64,000 nucleotides of DNA from Escherichia coli (lineage in GTDB: Bacteria > Pseudomonadota > Gammaproteobacteria > Enterobacterales > Enterobacteriaceae): the NCBI RefSeq assembly GCF_003334765.1, contig NZ_QOWT01000014.1, one strand, 5' to 3'. Below are positions 60,680-62,655 of this stretch, piece after piece (the stretch's first letter is position 1; every line of letters begins with the position of its first letter). The position numbers were made by a program, and so were the translations under genes. The notes under the pieces were generated by a model that was not told the DNA's origin, did not search any database, and saw nothing but the letters and a program-made list of their open reading frames with translations.

Positions 60680-61306
60680 TTATTTTTTCTCGGACAGATA
60701 TTTCACTGTATCAGCATACTGCTGAACAAAAACATCCATATTGCTGGTATCCATACCCTGCGGATTCAGCTGATATTTACCGTTAACAAACATCGCCGGA
60801 ACGCCACGCAATTGCACGTCAGCTGCAGCTTTTTCCTGCTGAGCGACCAGAGATTTCACCACGAAGCTGTTCCACGCCGCGTCGTACTCTTCACCTTTAA
60901 TACCTGCGTTGATAAATACATCGCGGATATCAGAAGCAGAACGAATGGTCTGGGTTTTCTGTACGCCTTCAAACAGCGGAACAGTCACTTTGTCTTCCAC
61001 GCCCAGCGCCATCGCCACAGCCCATGCCTGAGTCAGATCTTTGCCCAGGTCACCACCCATGAAGTTGACGTGGTATTTAGTCATCTTCACGCCTTCCGGC
61101 AGTTTTTTCTTCACATTATCAGAAATATGCAGAACTTCTTCAAACTGATAGCAGTGCGGGCAGAAGAAAGAGAAAAACTCCAGCACTTGCGGCGCGCCAG
61201 CTACCGGTTTTTCTAGGGTAGTGTACTGTTTACCATCTTCATACTGCGCCGCCGATGCGCTAAACGCTAAAACTAAACCAGCCAGCGCCAGCCAAATCTT
61301 TTTCAT
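60680..61306 (-). CDS. dsbA: Periplasmic thiol:disulfide oxidoreductase DsbA
   Basis: 208 aa; signal peptide; active site CPHC ([12 protein letters not shown]). Confidence 0.96.
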
Positions 61307-61322
61307 GATCTACTCTCTCCGA

Positions 61323-62309
61323 TTAATACATAGGTGTTAATTGCAAAGGGGGTTCTTGTAGAACTTTTGCCTGTTCTATAAAAGTCGCCGTCTGTCGCAG
61401 CCAGTAATCTTCCCCGGTTAACCACGGGAAATTTTTCGGGAACGCGGGATCAGCCCAACGCCGCATTAGCCAGGCAAGATAATAAACCAAACGCATGGCG
61501 CGTAAAGGTTCAATCAGTCCGATTTCAGCGGTGTCGAACTCGCTAAATTCTTCATAAGCTTCAATAATAGTTTCCAGTTGCATCCGCTGCTCGGCTTTAT
61601 CGCCATTGAGCAACATCCACAAATCCTGAACGGCTGGACCATTACGTGCATCATCCAGATCAACAAACATTGGACCATCGCGCCAGAGAATATTCCCGGC
61701 GTGGCAGTCTCCATGTAGCCGCAGAACGGTGAAATCTTCCCGCCAGTGTGCTGTAACGGCGGCAATCAGCTCATCTGTCGCTTTCAGGAATGCCGCTTTC
61801 AACCCGGAAGGTATCAGTGTAGCGTCCTCAAACAGCTTGCGTGGCTCAATGAGATATTCGTTCAAACCGATGGTCGGGCGATGGATAAAAAGCTGTTTGC
61901 GCCCCGTCTGGTGCATACGCCCTAAATAACGCCCAACCGCTTCCATCTGATCGATATTATCAGCTTCGAACTGGCGACCACCGACGCTTGGAAAAACAGC
62001 GAAATAAAATCCCTGATGATTCAATAAAGTCTGACCGTTAAAGGCCACAGGTGCTGCGACCGGAACTTCATCATTTACCAGCTGCAACGCAAATTGATGT
62101 TCTTCGAGGATTTGATCGGCTGTCCAACGTTCAGGGCGATAAAATTTGACGACAAAACGTCGACGATCTTCGTCCTGAAATTGATAGACACGGTTTTCAT
62201 AGCTGTTAAGCGGGGTAAGACCGGAATCCACCCGGATCCCATGCTCAAACAGAGCGTCCATGATGGTATCCGGGTGTAGTGTCTGGAAAGTAAAAGCGCT
62301 GTTATTCAT
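61323..62309 (-). CDS. srkA: Stress-response Ser/Thr protein kinase SrkA (YihE/RdoA)
   Basis: 328 aa; kinase-like catalytic motifs (HGDCHAGNILW, VDLDD). Confidence 0.92.
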   Translation of the reverse strand: MNNSAFTFQTLHPDTIMDALFEHGIRVDSGLTPLNSYENRVYQFQDEDRRRFVVKFYRPERWTADQILEEHQFALQLVNDEVPVAAPVAFNGQTLLNHQGFYFAVFPSVGGRQFEADNIDQMEAVGRYLGRMHQTGRKQLFIHRPTIGLNEYLIEPRKLFEDATLIPSGLKAAFLKATDELIAAVTAHWREDFTVLRLHGDCHAGNILWRDGPMFVDLDDARNGPAVQDLWMLLNGDKAEQRMQLETIIEAYEEFSEFDTAEIGLIEPLRAMRLVYYLAWLMRRWADPAFPKNFPWLTGEDYWLRQTATFIEQAKVLQEPPLQLTPMY

Positions 62310-62385
62310 CCCATCATCCGGAAAACATTACGAATGACGAAGGATATCATTTCACGATGATTTTGGTGGCGCCGCTTACAAGCTT

Positions 62386-62655
62386 TTACTCTTTAATTAC
62401 GCCGCGAGCGCGTAACAGCGCCGTTTTGAAGTCTTCTTCATAATCTTTCTGCAAACCCGGGATCACCGCATCTTTCGCGGAATCACGCATTTTCAGGTGA
62501 TAGATCAGAATGTCATCCGTCAAATCCGCCAGTTCGCCGTCAAAACCTGACTCTTTCGCCAGTTTCTGCAAAAATTGCAGCAGGTTAAGGTCTGGCTCTT
62601 TTTGCCAGGCTGGCTGGAGGAGTTCAATAACTTCATTCAGACGTTTACATTTCAT
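62386..62655 (-). CDS. yihD: DUF1040-family small protein
   Basis: Track ORF 62386..62685; start at [15 protein letters not shown] with AGGAG Shine-Dalgarno; 89 aa. Confidence 0.85.

Follow-up and report, generated by a model that had tools for sequence, protein, structure and literature searches.

How do a cytoplasmic stress kinase and a periplasmic disulfide catalyst come to share transcripts, and is the small gene that precedes them part of the same unit? This question is raised by the yihD-srkA-dsbA locus of Escherichia coli, analysed here in a stretch of 64,000 nucleotides (contig NZ_QOWT01000014.1 of assembly GCF_003334765.1), called the window below, whose first letter is position 1. 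A previous sequence-only reading had proposed that the three genes are co-transcribed, with an internal dsbA promoter inside the srkA coding region. The locus is, very probably, the classical and well-studied srkA(yihE/rdoA)-dsbA operon of E. coli, with yihD lying immediately upstream, and as such it is already known. The sole correction to that reading is that yihD is not an established member of the E. coli transcription unit.

Gene layout and co-transcription of srkA and dsbA

The three genes lie on the minus strand. The first, yihD (62386-62655), runs from ATG to TAA and encodes a DUF1040 protein of 89 aa; srkA (61323-62309), also known as yihE or rdoA, encodes a cytoplasmic stress-response Ser/Thr kinase of 328 aa with an APH/protein-kinase-like fold; and dsbA (60680-61306) encodes the 208-aa precursor of a periplasmic thiol:disulfide oxidoreductase. 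The first gap, between yihD and srkA, measures 76 bp (62310-62385), and the second, between srkA and dsbA, 16 bp (61307-61322, TCGGAGAGAGTAGATC). This co-oriented arrangement and its spacing, as described previously, proved exact by the listing of open reading frames (ORFs) and by direct translation. Moreover, a 2.1-kb query (window 60600-62720) was matched in 5426 of the 5426 complete E. coli genomes, in many of them at 100% identity, and the annotation names the genes at this locus yihD, srkA ("stress response kinase SrkA") and dsbA. For all three proteins, an identical or almost identical E. coli structure has been solved (2KO6, 1ZYL and the DsbA entries, respectively).

For comparison, related loci were collected by a scan of one genome per species, which yielded 80 loci, all from Enterobacteriaceae and with SrkA identities of 79-99%; these were dereplicated to 72.

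A single strong terminator had been noted after dsbA, and the observation is borne out. The intrinsic terminator AAAGCCCGTGAATATTCACGGGCTTTTTTT (60633-60662, minus strand) starts 17 nt after the dsbA stop codon and consists of a stem of 11 bp, 6 of them G-C pairs, which is closed by a 4-nt loop and followed by a T7 run; its fold reaches -19.3 kcal/mol (z = -6.27), and none of 200 shuffled sequences folded as well. A terminator-like site is found within 120 nt after dsbA in 71 of the 72 dereplicated orthologous loci. A terminator between srkA and dsbA, named beforehand as the finding that would speak for separate transcripts, was looked for at this junction and none was found, the junction being less structured than shuffled sequence (z = +1.4). 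The absence of an intervening terminator and the published work agree with the proposed co-transcription of kinase and dsbA: yihE-dsbA co-transcription under CpxRA regulation has been reported (PMC9663540), and the Cpx control is attributed to Pogliano 1997 (Genes Dev 11:1169), as cited in that source. The title of Belin & Boquet 1994 (Microbiology 140:3337), as it is given there, calls the upstream gene "weakly expressed" and has dsbA expressed only "partly" from its promoter. The Cpx test that had been suggested for this locus was in essence carried out during the 1990s. It is from this literature, and not from the sequence analysed here, that we take the co-transcription, the dependence on Cpx and the fact that the upstream promoter contributes in part.

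The 16-bp spacer contains the Shine-Dalgarno sequence of dsbA, GGAGAGAG (61313-61320, minus strand), and a GGAGA-type core was present in all 13 orthologous spacers printed, of 16 or 26-27 nt. Spacer lengths were measured wherever srkA was matched over its full length (78 loci). The yihD-srkA spacer was of 74-77 nt in all of them, and the srkA-dsbA spacer was of 14 nt in one locus, 16 nt in 22, 25 nt in 2, 26 nt in 7, 27 nt in 44 and 29 nt in 2. The latter distribution is bimodal: the 16-nt form is that of Escherichia, Salmonella, most Citrobacter and some Kosakonia-like loci, whereas most other genera have 26-27 nt. In the printed examples of the longer form, roughly 10 additional bases stand on the 5' side of the shared GGAGAGAG.

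As regards the opposite strand, the terminator hairpin (60637-60662) is flanked by AAA and T7 and also scores as a terminator in the plus direction; its tail in that direction, ATGTAATTTA, is a poor one, and there is no convergent plus-strand gene. The 190-aa plus-strand ORF that lies antisense to dsbA (60644-61216) is probably no more than a mechanical one.

Promoters upstream of srkA and within it

At the yihD end of the 76-bp gap, overlapping the yihD stop codon, lies a binding box for phosphorylated CpxR (CpxR-P), GTAAAAGCTTGTAAG (62375-62389, minus strand). It has one mismatch to GTAAA-N5-GTAAA and is, letter for letter, the CpxR site given for srkA (yihE) in supplementary file 1 of PMC9600279. 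Across the 72 dereplicated loci, GTAAA is invariant as the first half-site, the second reads GTAAG or GTAAT, and the spacer is more variable (GCTT, CCTT or GGTT); fixed half-sites around a more variable spacer are the usual signature of a transcription-factor site. A scan of the whole window for GTAAA-N5-GTAAA with 3 mismatches was uninformative (508 matches, about 439 being expected), and a local scan with at most 2 mismatches was used instead, which found no comparable box near dsbA. In agreement with this, srkA is a known positively Cpx-regulated gene, 3.5-fold higher in cpxA24 (PMC9600279), the CpxR regulon of RegulonDB, as reproduced in PMC7657598, includes both srkA and dsbA, and "yihE-dsbA" has been counted among the ten best-defined CpxR target operons (PMC6361445).

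Downstream of the box, the block GAAATGATATCC, in which every column is at least 90% conserved across the 72 loci, holds an extended -10 element, TGATATCCT (62349-62341), of a putative promoter core spanning 62333-62349 on the minus strand, with a start at about 62333. This start is taken from an independent construct: primer JW10395 of Adams et al. 2021, with which their fusion of the srkA 5' untranslated region (UTR) and ORF begins, starts at TCGTAATGTTTTCCGGATG (PMC7815308 supplement), which maps to 62333, 8 nt beyond the -10 hexamer, and gives a 24-nt srkA leader. The assignment of the -10 element is itself a prediction. No recognisable -35 element was found in this promoter, and the centre of the CpxR box lies about 49 nt upstream of the start; both features would fit an activator-dependent promoter.

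In E. coli, the 76-bp gap therefore contains a promoter belonging to srkA itself, which makes srkA-dsbA the documented operon and yihD at most a contributor by read-through. The literal form of the previous reading, in which the three genes would form one obligatory operon transcribed from a yihD promoter and the 76-bp gap would be only a spacer, agrees with the co-orientation of the genes in 80 of the 80 loci and with the gap itself, which carries no intrinsic terminator. Moreover, in the relative with 54% SrkA identity described below, where the gaps are of 14 and 20 bp and no CpxR-like box is seen, a true three-gene operon is likely. In E. coli, however, the gap carries the published CpxR box and the conserved extended -10, an independent study starts the srkA transcript within it (PMC7815308), and the literature names yihE-dsbA, not yihD-yihE-dsbA (PMC9663540, PMC6361445). 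Since there is no terminator after yihD, read-through from that gene may contribute, but it is not required, and an obligatory three-gene operon is quite unlikely. What stands of the earlier claim about yihD is its co-orientation and the 76-bp gap, while its membership in the unit is not established. A structured element or terminator in this gap was also considered and discarded, as the gap folds like shuffled sequence (z = 0.01) and lacks any hairpin with a U run behind it.

The second promoter was searched for in an alignment of srkA from the 72 dereplicated species, covering 400 nt upstream and the whole gene (1.4 kb). At least 50% of the species retain a promoter-like match at only two positions, of which the sole one in the 3' half of srkA is TTTACG-N16-TATTAT (61479-61506, minus strand; srkA codons 268-277), which fits 9 of 12 consensus positions and recurs at 61506-61479 in 56 of 72 species (TTTACG in 57, TATTAT in 56). 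The candidate -10, TATTAT (61484-61479), ends 172 nt upstream of the dsbA ATG; a synonymous form of it, TAC-TAC, exists in 4 of the 72 orthologues. The four third-codon positions within the hexamers of the candidate show 85% conservation, whereas third positions average 62% over the gene, and only 0.7% of the placements with the same layout and frame reach that level. This conservation supports a dsbA promoter about 170 nt upstream of the ATG, at 61506-61479, although the precise hexamers, like the exact -10 of srkA, are a choice made by inference. A second dsbA promoter in the "distal part" of the upstream gene has been published, according to PMC9663540 as citing source, so that the internal promoter claimed in the sequence-only reading agrees both with this work and with a conserved predicted site in the 3' part of srkA.

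Taken together, these elements suggest the following course of events. RNA polymerase would start at about 62333, at a weak promoter in the yihD-srkA gap that would depend on CpxR-P bound at GTAAAAGCTTGTAAG (62375-62389). With no terminator in its way, transcription would continue along srkA, itself poorly translated, cross the 16-bp spacer, enter dsbA and end at the hairpin and T-run at 60662-60633. The second promoter in the 3' part of srkA, for which 61506-61479 is the best candidate, would give rise to dsbA-only transcripts and to a high basal level of DsbA, and dsbA would be translated independently of srkA by means of its own strong Shine-Dalgarno sequence. With two promoters and the CpxR box upstream, envelope stress sensed by CpxA would raise kinase and oxidase together, and the supply of DsbA would not be tied to the weak upstream promoter.

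Several points weigh against this account. The "direct targets" of CpxR identified by chromatin immunoprecipitation-exonuclease (ChIP-exo) in PMC7657598 include neither srkA nor dsbA. Furthermore, the candidate at 61506-61479 may differ from the experimentally mapped internal promoter, and dsbA was absent from the transcription-start datasets that could be searched. There is also a second trough of low synonymous variation in srkA, at codons 295-306, with the block TTCCCGTGGTTAACCGGGGAAGATTACTGG at 61401-61430 (codons about 294-303), which could hold another start or regulatory site. Finally, the 3'-end data of Adams et al. 2021 give a significant Rho score for srkA (PMC7815308).

This last result bears on the possibility that Rho halts most transcripts begun at the srkA promoter within srkA itself and that dsbA is expressed essentially from its own promoter, on independent transcripts. 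The weak ribosome-binding region of srkA, with GGAUGAUGGG directly abutting the AUG, points in the same direction, as do the words "weakly expressed" and "partly" in the title quoted above from PMC9663540. Nevertheless, the lacZ fusion to the srkA 5' UTR and ORF changed only 1.0- to 1.4-fold in rhoR66S, a discrepancy with the Rho score that Adams et al. call unclear (PMC7815308). Furthermore, it has been published that dsbA is co-transcribed and induced by Cpx by way of the upstream promoter (PMC9663540, PMC9600279, PMC7657598), and the CpxR box stands upstream of srkA, with none comparable near dsbA. Such independent transcripts are accordingly very improbable. The Rho score and the weak ribosome-binding region leave room for some Rho-dependent polarity in srkA, with which an internal dsbA promoter would be useful, but this possible polarity does not overturn the published co-transcription. 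YihE (SrkA) has itself been reported to bind Rho and to alter its RNA binding (PMC9663540); an autoregulatory loop of SrkA on its own operon is discussed in neither PMC7815308 nor PMC9663540.

Some further features of srkA were observed. The block TTCCCGTGGTTAACCGGGGAAGATTACTGG, at a distance of 95-124 nt from the dsbA ATG on its upstream side, contains an 8-bp palindrome, GGTTAACC, and shows no good sigma-70 match; a CpxR-like match with 2 mismatches occurs on the opposite strand at 61417-61431. At the other end of the gene, the translation start is weak, with only GGATGATGGG directly abutting the ATG. Codons 1-16 (62262-62309) vary little, their normalised codon entropy being about 0.39-0.52 against a gene mean of 0.72, and an in-frame ATG occurs at codon 17; this low variation may reflect a constraint on translation initiation, an RNA element or an alternative start. 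The second promoter-like match, at codons 15-17 (-10 CATCAT at 62265, in 61 of 72 loci), was rejected, as it has a very poor -35 and falls in the generally conserved first 16 codons; it is probably a by-product of the constraint on the 5' end rather than a promoter. No Rfam family was matched within the yihD-srkA-dsbA region.

Encoded proteins and conservation of the linkage

SrkA matches PDB entry 1ZYL ("hypothetical protein yihE") over residues 1-328 (E = 3.9e-229), the Pfam family APH (PF01636) over residues 31-259 (E = 2.9e-46) and the NCBIfam equivalog NF008738 with 514 bits, the cut-off being 194. It carries a catalytic-loop motif of the HxDxxxxN type, HGDCHAGN (199-206), and a metal-binding Asp motif, DLDD (217-220), and its nearest solved relatives after 1ZYL are amicoumacin kinases. 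A Pfam scan at E <= 10 returned APH and a weak EcKL match only, without any match to Pkinase (PF00069). The description of SrkA as a "eukaryote-like" kinase is thus right as to the fold class, which is protein-kinase-like and shared with aminoglycoside and choline kinases, but not as to the Hanks-type family. On the basis of these profile and motif matches, SrkA is assigned to the APH/choline-kinase branch of the protein-kinase-like fold.

DsbA matches PDB entries 9EGR and 1A23, with E-values down to 1e-138, and the mature protein (residues 20-208) aligns with 1A23 and some 200 other entries; the match to NCBIfam NF008198 reaches 415 bits (cut-off 279). An N-terminal signal peptide is present, as well as a CPHC active site at residues 49-52. 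YihD matches the nuclear magnetic resonance (NMR) structure 2KO6 ("uncharacterized protein yihD") over residues 1-89 (E = 5.7e-55), has no match among the NCBIfam models and is named "YihD family protein" in RefSeq. In the 80 Enterobacteriaceae loci, YihD is conserved above its neighbours, with identities of 88-100%, compared with 79-99% for SrkA and 76-99% for DsbA, and it is still 75% identical in the lineage where SrkA has fallen to 54%.

The order mobA (divergent), yihD, srkA, dsbA was found in 80 of the 80 loci, and the same order, orientation and short spacers in all of them indicate that the arrangement is not due to chance. More distant SrkA relatives were taken as cluster representatives from an all-against-library search, and the loci encoding them were looked up. 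The relative with 54% identity has the order mobB-mobA (divergent), DUF1040, APH, DSBA, the gaps measuring 14 and 20 bp. Two loci at about 47% identity have APH followed by DSBA, one of the two with a tandem pair of DSBA genes; at 49%, DUF1040-APH is followed by a racemase gene; and at 43-46%, three loci have neither neighbour. Among these distant relatives (43-49%), four of the seven informative loci lack a downstream dsbA, one further contig being too short. No convincing CpxR-like box was found upstream of the genes of the distant relatives, so that the Cpx link appears to be confined to the Enterobacteriaceae sampled. The link between kinase and oxidase is older than this family, but it is not universal.

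An accidental neighbourhood of historical origin that means nothing for regulation, with gaps that are short only because the genome is compact, gains something from those four loci, which make the link non-obligatory, but it is hardly credible in view of the gene order in 80 of 80 loci with conserved spacers, the persistence of the link in three lineages at 47-54% identity, the conserved regulatory elements and the published co-regulation (PMC9663540).

A wider role for yihD can also be conceived, namely that it is the functional third member of an old yihD-srkA-dsbA module in which the share of read-through is tuned within srkA by Rho, possibly with feedback by SrkA. In favour of its membership are the conservation of YihD, the highest of the three proteins, the 14-bp linkage at 54% SrkA identity and its reported position beside dsbA in Haemophilus, with no kinase between the two. 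In favour of the tuning by Rho are the poor translation of srkA, its significant Rho score in one dataset and the reported binding of YihE to Rho. We regard this proposal as unlikely, and retain the srkA-dsbA operon with yihD as an upstream neighbour.

Surroundings of the locus and relation to known systems

Downstream of the dsbA terminator lies yihF (59095-60567, minus strand), for which the mechanical ORF of 490 aa begins at a GTG; the RefSeq start is the ATG at 60525, giving a YdgA family protein of 476 aa. A close yihF (85% identity) was seen after dsbA in just two of the 80 related loci, both from Escherichia; in E. albertii and four other genera, this position is taken by a relative of no more than 32-43% identity, and the remaining loci gave no match. 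The gene content beyond the terminator is therefore variable. On the other side, the contig ends 1.5-2 kb upstream of srkA, just past mobB, in most of the draft assemblies (loci L002-L081), and in the complete genome of locus L001 the 5S and 23S ribosomal RNA (rRNA) genes lie 272 bp beyond mobB; it is probably this rRNA operon that breaks the draft assemblies, and it would lie just past the end of the window. Elsewhere in the window, Rfam matches at gathering score were obtained for CsrC, Spot 42, ES222, a SECIS_3 element, STnc370 and four naRNA4 (REP-type) copies; the match coordinates are 53435-53688, 54717-54835, 46399-46506, 19484-19542, 44441-44509, 1321-1398, 10243-10405 and 51114-51191, and none overlaps the srkA-dsbA locus.

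The architecture described here explains how DsbA can be always abundant and yet be raised together with SrkA when Cpx fires. As this has been textbook knowledge since the 1990s, the present finding adds little.

Among known systems, the mobA-yihD-dsbA region of Haemophilus influenzae is similar in that a gene of the YihD family (DUF1040) adjoins dsbA near mobA, but differs in that, by its description in PMC4633490, no srkA-like gene is listed between yihD and dsbA. The rdoA-dsbA locus of Salmonella enterica (Suntharalingam et al. 2003, as cited in PMC9663540; gene STM3996 in PMC6361445) is much closer: it shares the yihD-rdoA-dsbA order, the 16-bp and 76-bp gaps and the CpxR half-sites, the box being predicted as GTAAAACCTTGTAAG, 66 nt upstream of yihE (PMC6361445 supplement), and differs in protein identity (about 86%) and in two bases of the box spacer. 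With the srkA(yihE)-dsbA operon of E. coli K-12, a member of the Cpx regulon, there is no difference: the locus, the DNA, the genes and the CpxR box are the same. Other bacterial operons also embed a promoter in the coding region of an upstream gene, and where the upstream promoter is stress-inducible, basal expression is thereby decoupled from inducible expression. Compared with such operons in general, the srkA-dsbA operon is particular in that its upstream gene encodes a cytoplasmic kinase and its downstream gene a periplasmic oxidase, so that the two products act in different compartments.

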